Positions 349-12,148 of a stretch of 12,148 nt of DNA are shown piece after piece; the stretch's first letter is position 1; every line of letters starts with the position of its first letter. The DNA is taken from the NCBI GenBank assembly GCA_035405085.1, contig DAONII010000020.1, positions 1 to 12,148 on the forward strand. Direction: 5' to 3'. The notes under the pieces were generated by a model. The model saw only the letters and a program-made list of their open reading frames with translations, was not told the origin of the DNA and ran no database searches. A program made the position numbers and the translations under genes. This DNA is from a bacterium (lineage in GTDB: Bacteria > UBA10199 > 2-02-FULL-44-16 > JAAZCA01).

Positions 349-1371
349 TCATATCCTGGACGCCGCCTCCGCAAGCCTTGTTGAAAAAGACGCGACGGGG
401 ACGGCTTCGTCACCGTCGCGGGATATCGGGAATACGCTCTGCCTTAAGACCCAGGCGCGGTGTTCCCCGGCAAGGGCGGAGGCGATGCTGCAAAGCTGTG
501 CCGTCGCGAAGCTCTTCGGATGAGCCAGAGCCAGCGGCCTGCGCATGGATACCGACTCCCCCGCGAACCGGGTCTGGGGTATCCAACCGTAAAACGACAG
601 CTCGGCACAGACGCCGTGGCGCGAGGCGACCGCGGTGATCTTCTTGTAGGCCCCCACCGCCTCGAGCCTGTCGGCCGAACGGTTCACCACCATCCGAACG
701 GGAGTGCGGATGCCGAGAGCGGCTGCTGACTTCAGGGTCGCATACGCATCGAGTAGCGCCGTTGCGTCGGGAGTGGTGACGAGCAATATAGAGTGTGCAG
801 CCGCAAGAAAGCGCATAACCTGCGGGCCTATCCCCGCGGCGAGATCGACCAAAATCATCCCGCCGTCCTCCTCGAGCAAAGCCATCTCCCCTGCAAGATG
901 GCGCAGCTTCCCGAAGGAAAGCTCGGCGAGCTCCGCGAGGCCGGATCCCCCTGAGACGAGGCGGACGCCCCCCTCGCACTCGATAGCGGCGTCTTTCATC
1001 CGCACGCGCCCGGCGATGACATCGGAAACGTCGTGCCGCGGCATCACCCCCATGAGCAGGTGCGCGTTGGCGAGCCCCATGTCGGCATCCACTAGCGTCA
1101 CCCCTATTCCCCGCTGCGCGAGCAGCACCGCAAGGTTCGTGGTGACCACGCTCTTGCCCGTCCCGCCCTTGCCGCTCGCGACGCACACGACCTGCGCCTT
1201 GGCGGGTGAGACCGGTTTCACGGGTTTTTGCGGAGGTACACCCTCGGGGAGGAGGCGTTCATCGCGCAGATCCTCCCCCCGAACGCTCGTCACGTCGCGG
1301 AGGGTCCTCGCGAGGAGTCTTGCAGTTCCGGATGCCATCGGGTTCCTGACAGTTTGGGCAGTTTTTACCAC
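349..1371 (-). CDS. MinD/ParA-family P-loop ATPase (deviant Walker A, SIMIBI class) with an N-terminal extension of ~60 aa rich in Pro and Arg
   Basis: Deviant Walker A VASGKGGTGKSVVTTNLAVLLA. DADMGLANAHLLMG and ILVDLAAGIGPQV (Walker B-like) are typical of MinD/FlhG/ParA. GTG start at 1371 is preceded by GGAAGGG with a 4-nt spacer. TGA stop at 349-351. Codon bias is coding-like. Confidence 0.85.
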   Translation of the reverse strand: MVKTAQTVRNPMASGTARLLARTLRDVTSVRGEDLRDERLLPEGVPPQKPVKPVSPAKAQVVCVASGKGGTGKSVVTTNLAVLLAQRGIGVTLVDADMGLANAHLLMGVMPRHDVSDVIAGRVRMKDAAIECEGGVRLVSGGSGLAELAELSFGKLRHLAGEMALLEEDGGMILVDLAAGIGPQVMRFLAAAHSILLVTTPDATALLDAYATLKSAAALGIRTPVRMVVNRSADRLEAVGAYKKITAVASRHGVCAELSFYGWIPQTRFAGESVSMRRPLALAHPKSFATAQLCSIASALAGEHRAWVLRQSVFPISRDGDEAVPVASFSTRLAEAASRI

Positions 1372-1576: not shown

Positions 1577-3079
1577 ATGAAGACATCCGAATTGCTCAGA
1601 AAGTTCTCGAGCCTGAACATGGAGAGCAGGCTCATCGACGTTCCCTTCCTGCTCAGGGCCCATGAGGAGGGGATGGTCGATGAAACCTCGCTCGAACCGG
1701 TTTCTTCGCTTCTGGCGCAGGAGTTTGCGGACGAGTGGGTTCCATATCCGATAGCCGACATACTAGATGAAATCGGCATGAGCTCGCGGCCTTCTACCAC
1801 TGGCATCGTGGGCAAGGACAGGGGAACCGGAAGCAATCTTCACAAGACCTACAAGCTCGCCCTGAGCGAACTGGGCAAACTCTCCACGCGTTTTCCCGAG
1901 GCCGCGGATTACTATCGCCCCTGGCTCGAACGAATAGATAAGGAGCTGGAGCTGCACAGGAGCAAAGCTGAGAGGGAAAAACTCGAGCAAAGCCTCAATT
2001 TCTTCAGGAAGTCGGTCTACAGGGAACTCGAACGGCAGGACATCTATGAAAAACACTTCTGGAACGGCGTTCAGGCAAAGCTCTTGGACCACTACGACAG
2101 CGAGGAGAACCGTTGGCTCACGAGCGCCCACTATTTCTTGAGCATGCTAGGAGGCGCAAACGACCTGTCCCACTCTTCGAACGTGTTGGAGCTCGGCGCG
2201 CTCAAGCTCCAGATCCCGATTCTCGCAAGGGCCATATCGCACAGCGTGGAAACGCAGGGCGTCAGGTTCAACATACTGGGGCTTGGCGAGAGGACGCTGC
2301 TGGAGATAAGGGGGCGGGGTTCCCACCTTTCCCTCGACACCCCGGAGTTCGCATCGCTCGGCGTCGCGATGGGGGCACAGGATGCGCGCCCCGCAGACGA
2401 CAGGCTCACCTCGATAGCGGTCGGCCCCGAACAGACAGGGTGGCTCAGGTGGAAAAAACTGATTCAGAGCCCTCTGTTCATAAAGCACGGCGCCAGACTT
2501 TTGCCTTCAAAGGCGTTCTGGGGGGTACGATTCCCCGAGTTCAAGCCCTCGGACCCCCCCGCCTTTCTCGAGGAACACCTCGTCGGGTGGTCCTCGGAGG
2601 ATCAGCACCTGTGGGCGAAGGTTTTGAGCCTTGGCAAATCGACTCTCTACGAGATAACGATCGTAAACCAGATGAAGGGCAGGGGCGGCTACATCCCGAA
2701 CGCAGCGCTCTCGCTCGTCATATCCGACGGCAAAATAAAATCGGCGAACTACACCATATTCAAGCTCAACGGCGAAGGGAAGATGATCGTGAACGTAGAT
2801 AAGCGCCGGATAGAAAACCTCGTCGCGCGCGCGTCAAAAAAATCGGCTCCGATAGTTTCGAAGGAGGCGAAGGAGACGACCTTAAAATCGGAAGAGGTGG
2901 AGAAGAGGTTCGGAGGAATCGTATCATCGGCCAAGGGCTCCAAACCGGAGGAATCCGAAAAGAAGGATTTGCCGGCAGTGGATACGACCGAGCCGGCTTC
3001 AAACTCAGGCGCGCAGGCAACCCAACCGTACCTGCCGGTCGTGGCAACCTCCACGCTGCCCACAACTATAAAGAAATAA
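1577..3079 (+). CDS. Uncharacterized protein, paralog A (500 aa); conserved C-terminal module plus K/S/E-rich tail carrying an EKRFGGI motif
   Basis: Long ORF with ATG at 1577 preceded by AAGGA; stop TAA at 3077-3079. It is homologous along its whole length to the next ORF: IDVPFLLRAHEEG vs INVPFLLLAHERG; RWKKLIQSPLF...WGVRFPEFKPSDPPAFLEEHL...QHLWAKV vs RWKKLMESPLF...WGIRFPAMPPSDPPSFLDRHL...QHLWAQV; IVNQMKGRGGYIPNAALSLVISDGKIKSANYTIF vs VVNQFKTKNEGYNPNAALHLVIANGEIESAKYEIF. No NTPase or other known motif is recognisable. Confidence 0.85.
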   Translation: MKTSELLRKFSSLNMESRLIDVPFLLRAHEEGMVDETSLEPVSSLLAQEFADEWVPYPIADILDEIGMSSRPSTTGIVGKDRGTGSNLHKTYKLALSELGKLSTRFPEAADYYRPWLERIDKELELHRSKAEREKLEQSLNFFRKSVYRELERQDIYEKHFWNGVQAKLLDHYDSEENRWLTSAHYFLSMLGGANDLSHSSNVLELGALKLQIPILARAISHSVETQGVRFNILGLGERTLLEIRGRGSHLSLDTPEFASLGVAMGAQDARPADDRLTSIAVGPEQTGWLRWKKLIQSPLFIKHGARLLPSKAFWGVRFPEFKPSDPPAFLEEHLVGWSSEDQHLWAKVLSLGKSTLYEITIVNQMKGRGGYIPNAALSLVISDGKIKSANYTIFKLNGEGKMIVNVDKRRIENLVARASKKSAPIVSKEAKETTLKSEEVEKRFGGIVSSAKGSKPEESEKKDLPAVDTTEPASNSGAQATQPYLPVVATSTLPTTIKK

Positions 3080-3098
3080 CGACTTTCGAGGAACTCGG

Positions 3099-4628
3099 AT
3101 GAACATATCAAAATATCTCACACGGATCAGCGACGACGGAAACTACTCGGGGCACATAAACGTGCCTTTTCTGCTCCTCGCGCACGAGCGGGGAATCATA
3201 GGCGAAAATGAACTCGCCCGGGCCGCGGTCCTCATCGAGGAACAGCAGGACGGCTTCTACCAGATTTCAAACGAGGTCCTGGTCAGCCTGCGCATAAACG
3301 CGGGTGTAGGTCCCGAACACGCCGAATTCCGAAGGAAAATCTCCGAAAACCGCATCGACGACGGCAGCAGGGAAAACCTGGAGGAGAACCGCCTTAAGGC
3401 GCAGGAGTCGCTCCGTCTTTTGGAGAAGGGTTTTCCCGGAGTCGCGCGCGACTACGGCCGCTGGCTGACGGAGATATCGCGCCTCGAAAAGAGGGCCTTC
3501 AACACTCCGACTCGTCAGTACGCGGCCGGCCAATACCGCCTCTTTCATGAAACCTCCATGTGGGAGGAGATGGAGATCCAAACCCTCGCCGAGAGACGCA
3601 TGTGGAACAGGGTCGGAATATCCGTGCTCACCGAGGTGCAGGGGAGCGACGCGCTATGGCTCAAGAGCGCCATGGACTTCATAGACGGGATAGGCGATGC
3701 AAACGCAGACATGGGGCGCCCCTCGCAGAGGTTCAGGTTTGACGCGATAGCCTTCCAGACCGCCGTCCTTTCCGCCGCCGTCACGTGGTCGCTCGCCGAG
3801 CTCTCCACCGCCTATCGCCTCACTGAGGTCGGCGAAAAAACGGTCGTGGAAGTGGATGGTCTCAAAACCCCGGTCGTCGTCAGCACCCCGGAGTTCGCAT
3901 CCGTGGACATAGCCGTCAGAATCCACGAGGGGCACCATATCGGAGGCGGATTCGTCACGCTCCCGCCTGGCCCCGTTCAGCTGGGAGAAAAACGTTGGAA
4001 GAAGCTCATGGAGAGCCCGCTTTTTTCAGCGCATCCCACGCGGCTCATACCGTCGGATGATATCTGGGGGATACGTTTCCCCGCGATGCCCCCCTCCGAC
4101 CCGCCGTCCTTCCTAGATAGGCATCTGGAGGGACTCAGGACGCCGGAGCAGCACCTGTGGGCACAGGTGAACGACATGGACAGTTTACAGAGATACGGCA
4201 TCACGGTGGTAAACCAGTTCAAGACTAAGAACGAGGGATACAACCCGAATGCGGCGCTTCACCTCGTGATAGCAAACGGAGAGATAGAGTCCGCGAAATA
4301 CGAGATCTTCGGACTGAAGGACAACCATTCGCTGACCGTCGAGGTCGACGAGGCACGAATCTCAAATCTAATCGCCCACGCCCTGAAGTACAAAAAGTCG
4401 CCTTCGCCCAGGCAGACGGCTGACCCGGCGAAGGGTTCCGAGGGCGGGAGGAAGAAGAGGTTCGGCGGAATCTCGAAATCCGGGCGGGCCCGGCGGAAAT
4501 CGTCCTCAAAGAAATCCGGCCTTTCGGTTTCAGGCGAAGACCAGCGCAAAGTCATACCCCTGCAGCCGGCCTATGCCGCCCCGGTAATAGCCGCCTCCAC
4601 AAACGCGGTTTTGAAAGCGACCCGATAA
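3099..4628 (+). CDS. Uncharacterized protein, paralog B (509 aa); same family as 1577..3079; basic Lys/Arg/Ser-rich tail with KKRFGGI motif
   Basis: ATG at 3099 is preceded by GAGGAA with a 5-nt spacer, 19 nt after the paralog A stop. Stop TAA at 4626-4628. It aligns along its full length with paralog A at roughly one-third identity by eye, including the N-terminal MxxSxxLxR(F/I)S...VPFLL motif. Confidence 0.85.
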   Translation: MNISKYLTRISDDGNYSGHINVPFLLLAHERGIIGENELARAAVLIEEQQDGFYQISNEVLVSLRINAGVGPEHAEFRRKISENRIDDGSRENLEENRLKAQESLRLLEKGFPGVARDYGRWLTEISRLEKRAFNTPTRQYAAGQYRLFHETSMWEEMEIQTLAERRMWNRVGISVLTEVQGSDALWLKSAMDFIDGIGDANADMGRPSQRFRFDAIAFQTAVLSAAVTWSLAELSTAYRLTEVGEKTVVEVDGLKTPVVVSTPEFASVDIAVRIHEGHHIGGGFVTLPPGPVQLGEKRWKKLMESPLFSAHPTRLIPSDDIWGIRFPAMPPSDPPSFLDRHLEGLRTPEQHLWAQVNDMDSLQRYGITVVNQFKTKNEGYNPNAALHLVIANGEIESAKYEIFGLKDNHSLTVEVDEARISNLIAHALKYKKSPSPRQTADPAKGSEGGRKKRFGGISKSGRARRKSSSKKSGLSVSGEDQRKVIPLQPAYAAPVIAASTNAVLKATR

Positions 4629-4674
4629 AACCGAAATGCGCAGCACCGAAAAGAGCGTCAAACGGGGATAATCG

Positions 4675-6567
4675 TTGACCTCGAGCCCGGTCCGGGAGAT
4701 TTTGCGTCAGATGCTCAGGATCGACAGCCTGCACAAGTCCTACGGATCGCAGAAGCTCTTCGACGGCGCCTCGCTCCAGATGTCACAGGGCGAAAGGCTG
4801 GGCCTCATGGGCCGCAACGGCCACGGCAAGACTACGCTGATGCGCATCGTAATCGGCGCCGAGGAGGCCGATTCCGGCACGATAGAGCTCCCGAAAAACT
4901 ACAGCATCGGCTACCTAGAGCAGCACATCCACTTCGAGAGCCCGACGGTTCTAGATGTGGCCTGCGAGCGGATCCCCGAGGACAGGCTCCACGAGAGCTA
5001 CCGCGCCGAGGAGATACTCTTCGGGCTGGGCTTCTCGAAGGACGATCTGTCGCGCGCGCCCCAAATGCTATCCGGCGGCTTCCAGGTCAGGCTTCAACTC
5101 GCGCGCACGCTCGTCGAATCGCCAGACCTCCTGCTCCTCGACGAGCCGACTAACTATCTCGACATAGTGTCGGTGCGATGGATAACGAAGTTCCTGCGCG
5201 CATGGGACCGGGAGCTGATCGTAATATCCCACGACCGGGAATTCATGGATTCGGTCACCACGCACACCGCCATCATCCACAGAGGCGTCATTCGCAGGAT
5301 GCCAGGCTCCACCGGAAAGATATGTGAGCAGATAGCGCAGGAGGAGGAAGTCTACGAGAAGACGCGCATAAACGAGGAGCGAAGGCGCGCGGAGCTTTTG
5401 AGCTTCGTCGAGCGCTTCAAGGCGAAGAACACTAAGGCCTCCGCGGCGCGCTCGAAGATGAAGATGCTGCAGAAGATGCCGCTTCGCGACAAACTCGAGC
5501 AGATAGCCGACCTCGACTTCCGCTTCCGATACAAACCCTTTCCAGCAAAGAACGTCATGGAAGTCGAAGGCCTTTCGTTTTCATACGGCGACGCAGCCCC
5601 CCTCATATCCGATTTCAAAATCAGGGTGGGCGCCGACGACCGAATTGCGGTCATAGGCAAAAACGGAAAGGGTAAATCAACCCTCCTGAGGCTTCTTGCC
5701 GGCGAACTCGAGCCGAACGCGGGCTCTGTCCGCATGCACGCGCAGGCGTCCCCCGGCTTCTTCGGCCAGACGAACATCGAACGCTTGGTGCCATCGCGCA
5801 CCGTTGAGGATGAGATCGCGGCGGCCAACCCCGCGCTCGGCAAGAGCGCGGCGCTTGGGCTCTGCGGCCTCATGATGTTTTCCGGCGAGCGCGCCCAGAG
5901 GAGGATATCGGTCCTCTCCGGCGGCGAGAAGAGCCGCGTGCTCCTAGGAAGGATACTTGCGACACCTGCGAACCTGCTCCTTCTCGACGAGCCCACGAAC
6001 CACCTCGACATGCAATCGGTGGAGGCGCTCTCCGAGAGCATCGACGAGTTTCCAGGCGCGGTCGTCATCGTAACGCACGACGAGATGCTCCTCCGAAGCG
6101 TCGCCACGCGCCTCGTAGTCTTTCAGGGCGGAGGAGTCGAGCTCTTCGACGGAGGCTACGATGACTTCCTGGAGAGGATCGGCTGGGAGGAGGAGGCCGA
6201 TTCCGGAAAAGAGGACGCCCCGCGGGAGGGGAAGCCCGCCGCCGGCAGGAGGGAGCTGCGCCGCCTGCGCTCTAAAATCGTTCAGGAGAGATCCTCCGCG
6301 ATGCGCCCGCTGAAGGAGAGGATCGACTTCGCCGAGAGTTCCATCTGCGAGCTCGAGAGACAGATGAAGGAGGCGGAGGGCGGGCTGATCGAGGCGTCCG
6401 AGAATAAAGACGCCGTCAGGTGCGCCGGGCTCTCTCGAAATCTCAAGGAGTGTGGGGAGGGCATAGAGAAGCTCTTCGCGGAGCTCGAAGATGCCACGCT
6501 CGAATTCGAGCGCCTCTCAAAGCTCTTTGAAGAGCGCCTGGAAGAACTCGAGCCCGAAAACTCCTGA
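4675..6567 (+). CDS. ABC-F family ATPase (two tandem ABC domains plus C-terminal coiled coil; Uup/YheS-like ribosome-associated ATPase)
   Basis: Two Walker A motifs (GRNGHGKTTL, GKNGKGKSTL). Two ABC signature motifs (LSGGFQVRLQLARTL, LSGGEKSRVLLGRIL). Two Walker B motifs (LLLLDEPTNYLD, LLLLDEPTNHLD). Inter-domain linker of charged residues. C-terminal heptad-like Glu/Leu/Arg-rich coiled coil, as in Uup. The track start is a TTG at 4675. An in-frame ATG at 4711 gives the classic ABC-F N-terminus MLRIDSLHKSYG and may be the real start. Confidence 0.9.
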   Translation: MTSSPVREILRQMLRIDSLHKSYGSQKLFDGASLQMSQGERLGLMGRNGHGKTTLMRIVIGAEEADSGTIELPKNYSIGYLEQHIHFESPTVLDVACERIPEDRLHESYRAEEILFGLGFSKDDLSRAPQMLSGGFQVRLQLARTLVESPDLLLLDEPTNYLDIVSVRWITKFLRAWDRELIVISHDREFMDSVTTHTAIIHRGVIRRMPGSTGKICEQIAQEEEVYEKTRINEERRRAELLSFVERFKAKNTKASAARSKMKMLQKMPLRDKLEQIADLDFRFRYKPFPAKNVMEVEGLSFSYGDAAPLISDFKIRVGADDRIAVIGKNGKGKSTLLRLLAGELEPNAGSVRMHAQASPGFFGQTNIERLVPSRTVEDEIAAANPALGKSAALGLCGLMMFSGERAQRRISVLSGGEKSRVLLGRILATPANLLLLDEPTNHLDMQSVEALSESIDEFPGAVVIVTHDEMLLRSVATRLVVFQGGGVELFDGGYDDFLERIGWEEEADSGKEDAPREGKPAAGRRELRRLRSKIVQERSSAMRPLKERIDFAESSICELERQMKEAEGGLIEASENKDAVRCAGLSRNLKECGEGIEKLFAELEDATLEFERLSKLFEERLEELEPENS

Positions 6568-6597: not shown

Positions 6598-6632
6598 CGT
6601 AAAAAAACGCCCCGCGAAAGGCGGGGCGCTTT
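6598..6632. terminator. Rho-independent terminator hairpin (CGCCCCGC-GAAAG-GCGGGGCG), flanked by A7 on the left and CTTTG on the right; probably bidirectional
   Basis: A GC-rich 8-bp stem with a GAAAG loop at 6608-6628. The A-run at 6601-6607 gives a U-tract for the minus-strand gene that ends at 6654. There is a weaker T-rich stretch for the plus-strand ABC-F, which ends at 6567. Confidence 0.6.
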
Positions 6633-6653: not shown

Positions 6654-7694
6654 TTACCTCCTCCTCCTCCTCGCGAGCGGTATGGCCAGCGCCGGCAGGA
6701 GCAGGAGCAACCCCATCGGATTGAATGCAGCGCCGGGGATAAGGGCGCAAGAACCGTCTGCGGCTGCAGCGAAGGATTCGGGAGTCACGGTCGAGCCGCT
6801 CTCGAGCTGCATCCTCATCGCCTCCTTTTCGTCGCAGATTGCGCCGGCGGGAATCACCTGGTCGTAGTTCGCCACGTCCCTGCAGTTGTCCACGGAGTCC
6901 GGCACGCCGTCTCCGTCCGCGTCGCGGTCGGAGAGAACGAGTGCAGAGGCGGTGGAGATGAGCGGGCTGAGTTCCGGCACGAGCTTACCGTCCTCGTCCC
7001 TTATCGCCGCGGCGAACATCATCGTGCGGAAGCCCATGCCCATCGGCGTATCGGAGAGCGCTATTTTCCACTTCCTGGCGACCTCGTCCGCCGTGGTGCC
7101 GGTCAGCTTGAACTGCTCCAGAGTGGCCTCCGGGAGGGCGCAGCGGAAATACCCGGCATCGCCGACCACGCGGTCGTCAACGCAACGCACCTCGCACTCC
7201 GCCTGCTCCACTATGCGGTTCATAAGGGGCGCGGCCGGAAAGACGATCAGCGGAAAAATCTTCGCGTTTGCCAGTCTGGCCAAACACCTTGTGTTCTCGA
7301 TTGGAACGGGATGGAGCTTGTCGCAGTAAGCGCCCAGGATCCCAGGCATGTCGACGCCCTTTTCGAGCTTCACGTACGGCGCCTTCAGTTTGCCGTAGAG
7401 GATCACCTGGTGCCTCGCGCCGTCCTCGCTTAGCTTGATCGCGATGAGGTAGTCGTCGAGGTGCTTTGACAGCACGCGCTCCTTAGTCCAGGGCTCGAGC
7501 GGATCCAACACGGGGCCCGGGGTGGGAAGCGGCGGCTGTGGTTGAGGCGGCACGGGCTGCACCTGCCCCGGCAGAACCGAAGGCGGAATGATGACCGGCG
7601 GATCAAACGTAGGCGGGCCCGCAAAGGCCGCCTTCGCGCCGAAGGCTATGAGCATCAGTACCGAGACTAAAAGCGCAGGAGCAATCCTCTTCAT
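6654..7694 (-). CDS. Secreted protein: signal peptide, Pro-rich linker, Cys-rich domain, thrombospondin-type-3-like Ca-binding repeat, and a C-terminal hydrophobic helix plus RRRRR (exosortase/PEP-CTERM-like sorting tail)
   Basis: ATG at 7694 gives MKRIAPALLVSVLMLIAFGAKAAFAGPP, an n-h-c signal peptide. It is preceded by a perfect GAGGAGG (plus-strand CCTCCTC at 7700-7706) with a 5-nt spacer. The track's longer start at 7817 lacks an RBS and reads through a palindrome. Linker: PPQPQPPLPTPGP. Repeat: DRDADGDGVPDSVDNCRDVANYDQ (a DxDxDGxxDxxDNC TSP3-type repeat). Tail: ...IPGAAFNPMGLLLLLPALAIPLARRRRR-stop. Confidence 0.8.
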   Translation of the reverse strand: MKRIAPALLVSVLMLIAFGAKAAFAGPPTFDPPVIIPPSVLPGQVQPVPPQPQPPLPTPGPVLDPLEPWTKERVLSKHLDDYLIAIKLSEDGARHQVILYGKLKAPYVKLEKGVDMPGILGAYCDKLHPVPIENTRCLARLANAKIFPLIVFPAAPLMNRIVEQAECEVRCVDDRVVGDAGYFRCALPEATLEQFKLTGTTADEVARKWKIALSDTPMGMGFRTMMFAAAIRDEDGKLVPELSPLISTASALVLSDRDADGDGVPDSVDNCRDVANYDQVIPAGAICDEKEAMRMQLESGSTVTPESFAAAADGSCALIPGAAFNPMGLLLLLPALAIPLARRRRR

Positions 7695-7699
7695 AAGAA

Positions 7700-7706
7700 C
7701 CTCCTC
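7700..7706 (-). promoter_or_regulatory. Shine-Dalgarno site GAGGAGG for the secreted-protein gene
   Basis: The reverse complement of CCTCCTC lies 5 nt upstream of the ATG at 7694. Confidence 0.7.
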
Positions 7707-7807: not shown

Positions 7808-7836
7808 GGTCCTGCATCCGGAGGGGATGCAGGCCC
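7808..7836. promoter_or_regulatory. Perfect 9-bp inverted repeat CCTGCATCC-GGAGG-GGATGCAGG (possible operator or RNA hairpin) in the 5' region of the secreted-protein gene
   Basis: Read directly from the sequence: 7811-7819 is CCTGCATCC and 7825-7833 is GGATGCAGG, with a 5-nt spacer. There is no adjacent U-tract on either strand, so it is not a classic intrinsic terminator. It lies about 115-140 nt upstream of the 7694 start. Confidence 0.3.
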
Positions 7837-7960: not shown

Positions 7961-9049
7961 TCAATCGGCCGACGCCTTGCCCAGCATGCGGAAATTAAGC
8001 TCCACAGAGGCAAAGGGCCCGGCCCCGAAATCGATCCGGTTGTAGTCGCGGTCCTTGTATACGGAGCGGCTCTCGAAGGAGTTCCGGTCGAATACCCACC
8101 CCCCGGCGAGCTTCAGCTCCGCCCAGCGCGCCGGGCGAAGGCGCACCCCGCCGGAGATCCGCTTGTCGACCAGGAAGAGCCTGAGCTTCTTGTCCGGCTG
8201 AGCGTTGCGGAAATAGGTCTCGTTCGACCATACAAATTCCGTGAACGCCCGCACCGGCGGTATGAAGTCGTATCCGAGTTCAGCCGTGATCTTCAAAAGA
8301 GGCAGATATGTGAGCGAAAGATTAGCCTTGTATTCGGGAAAGAGCGTAGCCGCGATGACCGGCAGCCCTATGAGGCCGCGACACCAGCGGTTTCCTCCGA
8401 AAACAAACCCGAATCCGGGCAGAGGGATATGGTTCGCGAAGTCGCGGTTGTTCGAGTAGTTGAGAAAAGCGACCCACGCATTTCTCTTGCCCGACGGGAT
8501 CCTCATGAACCATGTCGCGATAAGTTCGGCGTCATCGAAACGACCGAAAGGAACGTCGCTCGCAGAGCCGAACTGGATCGAAATCCCGCTGGTCCAGTCG
8601 TTTGAGAATTTGCGCCTGTAGGTAGGGCCGAATCGGACGTCCGTCAAATTCTTCGGAAAGGGCTCCCCCGTCGTCGGCAGAACCGCGTCGGTCTCTATTA
8701 CGTGCGCCCGCACGCTCCCCTGAAACGTGAGTTCGTCTTGCCGGTTTTGCCACACCGGCACGGAGAGGAAAAGCTGCTGCTCGAGAGATGAATAAAATGT
8801 CCCCTGGCCGCTAACCTGCTCCGAAGGCAACACGAGCATCCGGTAGCGGAGAACCGGTCTGGCGCCCCCAACGTTCGGTGACGCGAATGCCGAAAAGGCC
8901 GGCTGGCCGGCCGCATCGGAAGGCCAGAAAAAGGCAAAACTGAGCGCCAACAGGGCTGTTAAGAGGGCTTTTCGCACGGACCGCAGAAGACACGCGCCGC
9001 CCCCCTTTGTCAACAGCGGCGTACCCCGTTTCGACTTTACTGGAGGCAA
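7961..9049 (-). CDS. Exported beta-rich protein of unknown function (possible outer-membrane or periplasmic protein); start codon uncertain
   Basis: The ORF stays open from a TTG at 9049 to TGA at 7961-7963. An internal in-frame GTG at 8977 would give MRKALLTALLALSFAFFWPSDAAGQP, a textbook signal peptide. The mature part is rich in alternating aromatic/hydrophilic stretches (FIPPVRAFTEFVWSNETYFRNA, RIDFGAGPFASVELNF), which suggests beta structure. No catalytic motif was recognised. Confidence 0.75.
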   Translation of the reverse strand: MPPVKSKRGTPLLTKGGGACLLRSVRKALLTALLALSFAFFWPSDAAGQPAFSAFASPNVGGARPVLRYRMLVLPSEQVSGQGTFYSSLEQQLFLSVPVWQNRQDELTFQGSVRAHVIETDAVLPTTGEPFPKNLTDVRFGPTYRRKFSNDWTSGISIQFGSASDVPFGRFDDAELIATWFMRIPSGKRNAWVAFLNYSNNRDFANHIPLPGFGFVFGGNRWCRGLIGLPVIAATLFPEYKANLSLTYLPLLKITAELGYDFIPPVRAFTEFVWSNETYFRNAQPDKKLRLFLVDKRISGGVRLRPARWAELKLAGGWVFDRNSFESRSVYKDRDYNRIDFGAGPFASVELNFRMLGKASAD

Positions 9050-10732: not shown

Positions 10733-12148
10733 ATGAGAAAAGTGCTGATGACCCCTGTCGCGGTAGCCTCGGCCATGTTCCTGGCGGCGAGCTCGGGAAT
10801 CGCGTCCGCCGCTTACAAGCCCGATGCGAACGCCCCGCGCTCCTCGGTCCCCGCGGAATATAAATGGAAGACGGACCGCATCCTGAAGGGCGACGGGGCA
10901 TGGGAGGCCGCCGTGCGGGGGGTCGACGCGGGGCTCAAGCTGCTTTCGAAGCACAGGGGGAAGCTCTCCTCCTCACAGGCCATACGCCGATGCATGGACG
11001 ATTTCGTCGGGGTGAGAAAGCTGATGGATCGGGTGAGCCTCTACGCCAGCCTCAAACACACGGAGGACGACGGCGTCGAAAAGTACAACCGCATGCACCA
11101 GCGCTCACTCGCCCTCACCAGGCGATTCATGGACGGAACCTCATTCATAAAACAGGAGATACTCTCAATCGATGACGCCCGCATGGGCGAGCTCCTGAAG
11201 GAGGAAGCGCTCTCGCCGTACCGGAAGGCCATCGGGGAGATGCGCCGCCGCAAGGCGCACATGCTCCACCCCGAGGCCGAGCGCGTCATGAACCTCGCAG
11301 GCGACAACCTTCTGGCAGAGATAGATCTGAACGAGCTGCCGTCCGACGTCGAGCTCGTATTCAAAGCGGTTCAGCGCGACCTGCAGCTGCCAAGGATAAA
11401 GGACGAGGAGAACCGCGAAATCCAGCTAACGCTCGCAAACTACGGCAAATACCGCCAGTCGAAGGACCGACGCGTCAGGCGCGAGGCGGTCGAAGGATTT
11501 CTCGCCGCGCTGAAGAAATACGAGAACATACTCGCGGCAACGCTCGGCGGCGAGATGAGGCGCGACGTATGGCTCGCCCGCGCACGCCGTTACGACCGCG
11601 CGGTGGAGGCTTATCTCGACGTCGACAACGTGCCTCCCAGGGTGATGGACGATCTCGTGGCCGCGGTGCACAAAAACCTCAAGCCGCTGCACCGCTACGT
11701 CTCCCTCAGAAAGAAGCTCCTTTCGCTTCCCGACGTCCGCCTCTACGACCTGTACACACCCATCGTGCCGGCCGCGGCCAAGGATGTCCCCTACGAGGAG
11801 GCGGCGGCGGATCTCGTCGCCGCTGTCGCTCCACTCGGAAGCGAATACGCGGAGGCGCTCTCCTCAGGGGTCAAGCCGGGCAGCGGATGGGTCGACGTCT
11901 ACCCGAACAAGGGGAAACAGAGCGGCGCCTTCTCCGCTTCCATCTGGGGGGTGCACCCCTTCGTCAAGATGAACTACATGAACTCGCTCGACGACGCCTC
12001 CACGCTGGCCCACGAGTTCGGCCACGCGATGCACAGCTATCTTAACTCAAGGGCCAACCCTTACATTGAATCCGGCTACTCCACGTTCACCGCCGAGATC
12101 GCCTCCACCTTCAACGAGCACCTGCTGACCCGCCATCTTCTCAAACAG
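10733..12148 (+). CDS. pepF: Oligoendopeptidase F (M3B zinc metallopeptidase, PepF-like), N-terminal 472 aa, with a predicted signal peptide; continues past the window end
   Basis: ATG at 10733 is preceded by AAGGAGG with a 7-nt spacer. The frame is open to the end of the window. HEFGHAMH (HEXXH zinc site) and the flanking VDVYPNKGKQSGAFSASIWGVHPFVKMNYMNSLDDASTLAHEFGHAMHSYL are characteristic of M3B PepF. N-terminus MRKVLMTPVAVASAMFLAASSGIASA-AY looks like a cleavable signal peptide. Confidence 0.9.
   Translation, partial: MRKVLMTPVAVASAMFLAASSGIASAAYKPDANAPRSSVPAEYKWKTDRILKGDGAWEAAVRGVDAGLKLLSKHRGKLSSSQAIRRCMDDFVGVRKLMDRVSLYASLKHTEDDGVEKYNRMHQRSLALTRRFMDGTSFIKQEILSIDDARMGELLKEEALSPYRKAIGEMRRRKAHMLHPEAERVMNLAGDNLLAEIDLNELPSDVELVFKAVQRDLQLPRIKDEENREIQLTLANYGKYRQSKDRRVRREAVEGFLAALKKYENILAATLGGEMRRDVWLARARRYDRAVEAYLDVDNVPPRVMDDLVAAVHKNLKPLHRYVSLRKKLLSLPDVRLYDLYTPIVPAAAKDVPYEEAAADLVAAVAPLGSEYAEALSSGVKPGSGWVDVYPNKGKQSGAFSASIWGVHPFVKMNYMNSLDDASTLAHEFGHAMHSYLNSRANPYIESGYSTFTAEIASTFNEHLLTRHLLKQ

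Follow-up and report, generated by a model that had tools for sequence, protein, structure and literature searches.

Is the C-terminal tail of the secreted protein HPQ80401.1 a simple membrane anchor or a sorting signal and, if it is a signal, to which class does it belong? The gene is an open reading frame (ORF) at positions 6654 to 7694 of a 12,148-base contig, on the minus strand. The contig comes from a metagenome-assembled genome (MAG) and is called the window below, in the sense of the whole stretch at its full length. It carries NCBI third-party annotation, with proteins HPQ80397 to HPQ80404 and the locus-tag prefix PLZ86. The ORF is a real gene of 346 amino acids (aa), and NCBI lists the identical 346-aa product as HPQ80401.1. 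Its public annotation recognises no sorting domain, and the protein is named only "thrombospondin type 3 repeat-containing protein." An earlier reading of the DNA letters (the original prediction) had proposed that the protein ends in a sorting tail of the exosortase or rhombosortase kind. Our analysis partly supports this proposal: the observation was largely correct, and the interpretation was right in kind but wrong in class. We suggest that the tail is a tripartite sorting signal of the Cys type, in the MYXO-CTERM/JDVT-CTERM class, and that it is cut by a myxosortase-like CPBP/Rce1 protease after the Cys has been modified. We give this reading a probability of about 0.62. The data show the gene, its domain layout, the conserved motif, the use of that motif as a module on other proteins, and its presence in several proteins of one genome. 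By analogy with characterised systems we infer which protease acts, that the Cys is modified, and where HPQ80401.1 ends up.

The tail and its parts are as follows.

aa 313 to 346, minus strand: the tail, at the extreme C terminus, DGS-C316-ALIPGAAF-N325-P326-MGLLLLLPALAIPLA-RRRRR (DGSCALIPGAAFNPMGLLLLLPALAIPLARRRRR).
6747 to 6749, minus strand: Cys316, the tail's signature residue, at which modification and cleavage are predicted.
6717 to 6722, minus strand: Asn325-Pro326, at +9/+10 from the Cys, which is the position of the DP motif in JDVT-CTERM.
6672 to 6716, minus strand: a hydrophobic, Leu/Pro-rich membrane helix, MGLLLLLPALAIPLA (aa 327 to 341), read from the sequence.
6657 to 6671, minus strand: the Arg cluster RRRRR (aa 342 to 346), predicted to be cytoplasmic.

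A hydrophobic helix followed by RRRRR at the very end of the protein had been noticed from the start, and the sequence bears it out. AlphaFold2 predicts a helix at residues 326 to 345. The tail had also been described as lacking a canonical signature, and here Cys316 was overlooked: it is the conserved element, along with the NP at +9/+10. The stretch IPGAAFNP, which had been offered as a variant signature, is indeed part of the motif, but what defines the motif is the Cys, which lies four residues upstream of that stretch. This Cys is the only one within the last 59 residues of the protein. It is invariant in three alignments (A2, A3, and A4) and corresponds to position 6 of the JDVT-CTERM profile.

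The same tail occurs on other proteins. An exhaustive HMMER search returned one close homologue (P0002, 65 to 69% identity, according to the tool used) and about twenty distant proteins, whose match spans the thrombospondin type 3 (TSP3) repeat through to the very C terminus and whose tails align on the Cys. In an alignment of 16 tails, only the Cys and the Pro at +10 are invariant. We then considered 33 distinct tails, gathered from proteins and loci and picked partly for having a Cys. All 33 have the Cys at the shared spacing, 29 to 32 residues from the C terminus in 28 of them, and every one terminates in a basic cluster. The residue at +1 is Ser, Ala, or Thr in 29 tails, that at +2 is Leu, Met, or Phe in 29, and that at −2 is Gly in 21. 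Pro stands at +10 in 19; at +9 there is Asn in 13 and Asp in one. Two relatives have DP at +9/+10: one in locus L001 and another, seen in addition to the 33, in locus L027. The passengers that these tails follow differ, and they include the family of the N-terminal domain of HPQ80401.1, proteins with TSP3 repeats only, and a 646-aa protein. The tail is thus a module, a conserved motif that is used on other proteins. The form peculiar to this lineage, as read from the aligned sequences, appears to be G-x-C-[SA]-[LMF]-x6-N-P, a Leu/Pro-rich helix, and an Arg cluster.

We trained a hidden Markov model (HMM) on 14 tails that included neither the window protein nor P0002. It scored the window tail at 39.3 bits and the runner-up ORF in the window at 5 bits. 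Applied to 2057 ORFs in 388 kb, the model matched ORFs that all bear the tail within 10 residues of the C terminus. All of its matches lie within loci of this lineage, and the few extra internal matches fall in the same ORFs. The search for other proteins with the same tail, which the original prediction had called for, thus yielded at least three more in the same MAG and about 30 further distinct tails in public data. The refuting condition set by the original prediction, that other proteins lack the tail, therefore fails, and the general idea of a sorting tail that implies a dedicated enzyme encoded elsewhere holds. Other searches added less. A profile of the tail only found nothing at an E value of 10 or better in a database of 5.8 billion proteins, for which the query is too short. 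When genome contigs were scanned with the family alignment, 13 of the 14 loci were unrelated TSP3 proteins and one, L008 (on the same contig as L001), was relevant. A metagenome scan with the single protein recovered only the 3-kb JGI contig of P0001.

One member of the family is naturally without the tail. In locus L019 (6238 to 7218, minus strand), and also in L020, a paralogue with the N-terminal domain and TSP3 ends in ...GSLGGCALIR, followed by a stop codon. The stop comes four residues past the signature Cys, close to the predicted cleavage point. No helix, no Arg cluster, and no frameshifted remnant of them was found downstream of this paralogue.

The MAG has at least four clients, because at least three further Cys-tail proteins are encoded in it. 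These three lie together on another contig of this MAG, 10,084 bases long (PLZ86_02010, HPQ80476 to HPQ80481): HPQ80477 (229 aa, with TSP3 and a C-x8-NP tail), HPQ80480 (275 aa), and HPQ80481 (244 aa), each with a Cys tail. A near-identical ENA contig contains, in this order, PTPS, SDR, five secreted-protein genes (three of them with the Cys tail), and MetH. Several metagenome contigs repeat this synteny, as does a contig of 326 kb in the MAG SKS1.bin41 (GCA_021810905.1); between SDR/PTPS and MetH, the syntenic loci have from three to six genes with the tail. A literature search for the identifiers of the related MAGs gave no result. One more contig has a four-gene tail cluster in another context. 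The gene in the window, by contrast, is dispersed and has unrelated neighbours: a convergent ABC-F ATPase gene on one side and a 362-aa ORF upstream.

Among the curated sorting-signal models, only two match HPQ80401.1. When all NCBIfam models were considered at E values up to 10, the sorting-signal matches were JDVT-CTERM (NF033191; 10.8 bits against a cut-off of 27) and MYXO-CTERM (TIGR03901; 9.3 bits against a cut-off of 20). The JDVT-CTERM match begins at the Cys and aligns aa 316 to 345 with profile positions 6 to 35. Twenty relatives score 7.1 to 21.1 bits with JDVT-CTERM and at most 15.2 bits with MYXO-CTERM. None reaches a cut-off except the control P0017, evidently myxobacterial, which passes MYXO-CTERM at 26.2 bits.

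JDVT-CTERM is the best-scoring sorting-signal model for the HPQ80401.1 tail and for most relatives. In Haft's description, the signal has one Cys that never varies; nine residues further on comes an Asp-Pro that is almost always kept, and a Leu-rich transmembrane segment and an Arg cluster follow. HPQ80401.1 likewise has a single signature Cys, a Leu-rich helix, and an Arg cluster at the extreme C terminus. The Pro at +10 is kept, and the motif matches residue for residue except for Asn in place of Asp. However, JDVT-CTERM systems have about one client per genome and a CPBP protease, the proposed MrtJ (NF033192), adjacent in 16 of 17 systems, whereas the MAG here has four or more clients and no adjacent CPBP protease. 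The hosts for which the JDVT-CTERM model was described are Pseudomonadota.

In its usage the tail is closer to MYXO-CTERM. Both have a Cys-containing signature after Gly-rich, disordered sequence, and both have several clients per genome that are unlinked to the enzyme gene; MYXO-CTERM systems have many clients per genome and an unlinked enzyme gene. Many MYXO-CTERM clients are TSP3-repeat proteins, and MtsC, by its model name, carries both features. MYXO-CTERM signals frequently have GCGC, whereas the tail of HPQ80401.1 has one Cys. From the sequence comparison, therefore, the tail appears to lie between JDVT-CTERM (in motif) and MYXO-CTERM (in usage), as a lineage-specific form that the current curated models miss.

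We propose a path for HPQ80401.1 that is modeled on the MYXO-CTERM pathway of Myxococcus xanthus. The enzymes proposed or shown for JDVT-CTERM and MYXO-CTERM are glutamic intramembrane proteases like CPBP/Rce1, not exosortases or rhombosortases; for MYXO-CTERM they are the myxosortases MrtX, MrtC, and MrtP. MrtX cleaves the MYXO-CTERM tag, needs its Cys residues, and also works in Escherichia coli. CPBP proteases have been tied to all four known Cys-type signals through gene neighbourhood or phylogenetic profiling. Because MrtX cleaves MYXO-CTERM and because CPBP proteases are linked to all four signals, the same path is proposed here. The signal peptide would be removed first. The C-terminal helix would then retain the folded passenger at the inner membrane, on its periplasmic face, while RRRRR stays on the cytoplasmic side. 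Cys316 would be modified, probably by lipidation. A myxosortase-like glutamic intramembrane protease of the CPBP/Rce1 family, encoded elsewhere, would cut just past the Cys, and the helix would be lost. In this scenario, the NP-containing helix may serve as a recognition element within the membrane. The modified Cys would keep the protein attached, and the protein would be moved to the cell surface, possibly through a type II secretion system.

Several points weigh against this reading. The tail scores well under the curated cut-offs of both JDVT-CTERM and MYXO-CTERM. Its hydrophobic segment contains P334 and P339 in addition to N325-P326, whereas MYXO-CTERM helices are without Pro. The invariance of the Cys among the collected tails is partly by construction, since the collecting pattern demanded a Cys; its conservation is visible independently in the alignments built from HMMER matches (10-sequence, 16-tail, and 17-sequence). 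There is also the missing enzyme. A family scan found no CPBP (PF02517) gene in the 12-kb window; eight related loci had none within 10 kb, and a scan of the related loci for the CPBP motif (EExxFRG...FxxxH...HxxxN) found none either. In true JDVT-CTERM systems, the gene for the protease is a neighbour in 16 cases of 17. As the search covered the window and related loci, a myxosortase elsewhere in the MAG is a prediction.

The alternative that fares best is a plain C-terminal membrane anchor, in which the helix and the Arg cluster would tether the passenger to the inner membrane with no cleavage and no modification of the Cys. Such an anchor needs neither a Cys at fixed spacing nor an [ND]P motif in the membrane, yet both are kept across unrelated passengers, and the tail motif fits the layout of signals that are known to be processed. 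For anchoring, a hydrophobic helix and a positive-inside cluster do suffice, and neither the window nor some 388 kb of related loci showed a processing enzyme. However, the L019 family member (…GGCALIR) ends after the Cys, and that paralogue, at least, can do without the helix. We consider a plain anchor unlikely.

Less likely still is a Cys-type signal that is cut by an enzyme other than a CPBP protease, that is, an unrecognised system with a convergent Cys...TM (transmembrane)...RRR layout. The scores below threshold against both known Cys-type models would fit such a system, as would the lack of a CPBP gene near any client cluster. Many-client systems such as MYXO-CTERM, however, are not expected to keep the enzyme beside the clients, and CPBP proteases map to all four known Cys-type signals, which makes them the parsimonious expectation. 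A PAP2_3 membrane protein is encoded beside the client cluster in L001 and L021 and could point the same way, but L019 lacks the gene at the corresponding place. A variant PEP-CTERM or GlyGly-CTERM signal for an exosortase or rhombosortase, the class named by the original prediction, is highly improbable: the tripartite layout and terminal Arg cluster are common to all these signal classes and Gly-Gly directly precedes the Cys in many relatives, but the tail contains no Pro-Glu-Pro and no GG (it reads DGSC...NPMG, with DGS before the Cys), neither PEP_CTERM (TIGR02595) nor GlyGly-CTERM was among the NCBIfam matches to HPQ80401.1 at E values up to 10, and a conserved Cys with NP at +9/+10 belongs to the Cys-type class.

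We therefore return to the Cys-type signal as the preferred reading. A further and more tentative proposal, to which we would give somewhat less than an even chance, is that C-x8-[ND]P...RRR tails form a fifth family of Cys-type sorting signals. This family would have several clients per genome, in a lineage from wastewater-type metagenomes, and would be served by its own myxosortase subtype or by a non-CPBP enzyme.

The rest of HPQ80401.1 is that of an exported protein. It is a Sec-exported protein with a Pro-rich spacer, a domain of about 185 aa, one TSP3-type repeat, and a disordered linker before the C-terminal tail. Its parts upstream of the tail are the following; pLDDT is the per-residue confidence of the structure prediction.

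7620 to 7694, minus strand: the Sec signal peptide MKRIAPALLVSVLMLIAFGAKAAFA, with G next (aa 1 to 25; MKR, a hydrophobic core, and AFA), read from the sequence.
7491 to 7619, minus strand: the Pro-rich spacer (aa 26 to 68; 42% Pro; pLDDT below 50).
6939 to 7490, minus strand: the N-terminal passenger domain, with no fold match (aa 69 to 252, about 185 aa).
6831 to 6938, minus strand: a single TSP3-like repeat (aa 253 to 288, DRDADGDGVPDSVDNC...C287), whose second half is degenerate.
6759 to 6830, minus strand: a low-complexity linker, probably disordered (aa 289 to 312; pLDDT below 50 over aa 290 to 325).

The signal peptide and the Pro-rich spacer had both been predicted, and both can be read from the sequence. 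MK[RK] followed by a hydrophobic stretch begins all 17 aligned family members, and the signal peptide of HPQ80401.1 has no lipobox Cys. In an alignment of 10 sequences, the spacer is variable or missing in the relatives, and the position of the linker is rich in Gly, Ser, Thr, and Glu and varies in length.

The passenger domain resembles nothing that we could match. A Pfam scan of the 17 family members found no family other than TSP_3. In sequence searches of the PDB, the family profile gave no match for the N-terminal domain, and phmmer with the protein alone gave no match at all. The predicted structure, made from the 10-sequence alignment, is poor (mean pLDDT, 54.8), and Foldseek found no match for it in the PDB (best E value, 0.05; TM score, about 0.1). 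The conserved features of the domain, seen in alignments A1 and A4, are a YG[KR]L motif (Y100 and G101) and the Cys pair C167/C185 (FRC motif).

The TSP3-like match had also been claimed. The segment DRDADGDGVPDSVDNCRDVANYDQ matches Pfam TSP_3 (PF02412) with 24.5 bits (E value, 2.2e-5), slightly short of the gathering score, which is 25, as a single copy with a degenerate second half. TSP_3 is matched at an E value of 0.01 or better in 14 of the 17 family members. In the PDB, the family profile matched the TSP3 regions of COMP (3fby), TSP-2, and TSP-1, with E values down to 7e-38, and it also matched the structure of an OmpA-family protein. Like TSP3 proteins, including the OmpA-associated form, HPQ80401.1 has a DxDxDGxxDxxDNC motif and a Cys pair. 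Unlike the OmpA-associated proteins, it has one repeat only and no OmpA domain. In the second half of its repeat (VIPAGAICD), the acidic Ca-binding residues are lost, whereas the relatives in the 10-sequence alignment keep them.

HPQ80401.1 has eight Cys residues, all of which had been placed in one domain of about 200 aa. The actual split is five in the N-terminal domain (124, 137, 167, 171, and 185), two in TSP3 (271 and 287), and one in the tail (316). C167, C185, and C316 are the sole invariant Cys residues across the 17 relatives; in the 10-sequence alignment, C287 is also invariant and C271 is nearly so. At 7163 to 7183 on the minus strand (aa 171 to 177), there is a 7-residue insertion, CVDDRVV in alignment A1, that is missing in P0002, the 65%-identical homologue. 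In P0002, conservation and proximity suggest that the other six Cys residues form three pairs and that the tail Cys is left unpaired, a detail in favour of the proposed path. The insertion adds the eighth Cys (C171), and therefore two unpaired Cys residues are expected in the mature protein.

The signals around the gene are consistent with its annotation.

7700 to 7706, minus strand: the Shine-Dalgarno sequence GAGGAGG, read from the sequence, 5 nucleotides before the ATG.
6608 to 6632, minus strand: a GC-rich, terminator-like hairpin with a T-run, just 3' of the stop codon at 6654 to 6656.

The start at 7694 is favoured over an upstream ATG at 7817 because of the 5-nucleotide spacing of GAGGAGG, and it also agrees with the 346-aa NCBI annotation. 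An exact look-up in protein records found no match for start variants of 387 aa and 359 aa, and the 346-aa form is recorded. The terminator stem was reported by the scan at 6623 to 6608; the scan gave one site against a mean of 2.0 in shuffled sequences, and the stem is thus a consensus match only. An ORF on the opposite strand (6886 to 7329) was rejected as a shadow ORF in GC-rich DNA, with no independent support.

Elsewhere in the window, the 362-aa ORF (7961 to 9049, minus strand) lies upstream of the gene on the same strand, across a 266-bp gap, and has an N terminus like a signal peptide. It has no Pfam family match. As read from its TTG start, it has no match in the protein collection, and the NCBI annotation probably begins elsewhere. 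An outer-membrane partner of HPQ80401.1 is one role that it could have. Two tandem paralogues of 500 and 509 aa are encoded at 1577 to 3079 and 3099 to 4628 (both plus strand); NCBI lists them as hypothetical (PLZ86_01575 and PLZ86_01580), and they have no Pfam match. A gene for a MinD/ParA-type P-loop ATPase (349 to 1371, minus strand) is divergent from these paralogues and just upstream of them. At 10733 to 12148 (plus strand), running off the contig end, is a gene for an oligoendopeptidase-like zinc metalloprotease with an HEFGH motif. It was called only by this motif, and it does not belong to the CPBP proteases; judging from its N-terminal signal peptide, it is probably exported.

In the related loci, the conserved neighbourhood of the client clusters spans 9054 to 14994 in L001, 9034 to 14000 in L019, 4929 to 9879 in L021, 1543 to 8305 in L023, and 1173 to 7016 in L028. 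The longer syntenic loci have RNR, ThyX, and NifU further upstream of SDR and/or PTPS, and the MetH encoded downstream of the tail-gene clusters is the B12-dependent methionine synthase. Between the tail-bearing genes of L023 stand two others (2508 to 4043 and 4304 to 6487, both plus strand), whose products, of 511 and 727 aa, are large, Cys-rich, and either secreted proteins or lipoproteins, and are without the tail. In the MAG of the window, HPQ80478 ("furin-like repeat-containing") is a cluster-mate of the 511-aa protein at 90% or more, and HPQ80479 is exactly the 727-aa protein. The gene for the integral membrane protein of the PAP2_3 family (PF14378) is separated from the client cluster by a few genes, at 7079 to 7732 in L001 (plus strand) and at 2404 to 3102 in L021 (minus strand); no such gene is at the equivalent position in L019. 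As a speculation, this protein is a candidate for a lipid-transfer step on the Cys.

To our knowledge, Cys-type signals and the CPBP "myxosortases" were described only in 2023 to 2025, and in few lineages: Myxococcota, Bradymonadales, some Pseudomonadota, Synergistetes, and Thermococcales. The tail of HPQ80401.1 extends the Cys-type class to another bacterial lineage. Its form escapes both curated HMMs, and the public name of the protein accordingly mentions the thrombospondin type 3 repeat and nothing of a sorting domain. A model made for this lineage, of which the 14-tail HMM is an example, would flag probable surface-anchored proteins in these genomes and would supply a phylogenetic profile with which to find the sorting enzyme. 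With the Cys-to-[ND]P spacing of JDVT-CTERM and the multi-client usage of MYXO-CTERM, the tail may help to show how these signals and their enzymes diverged.

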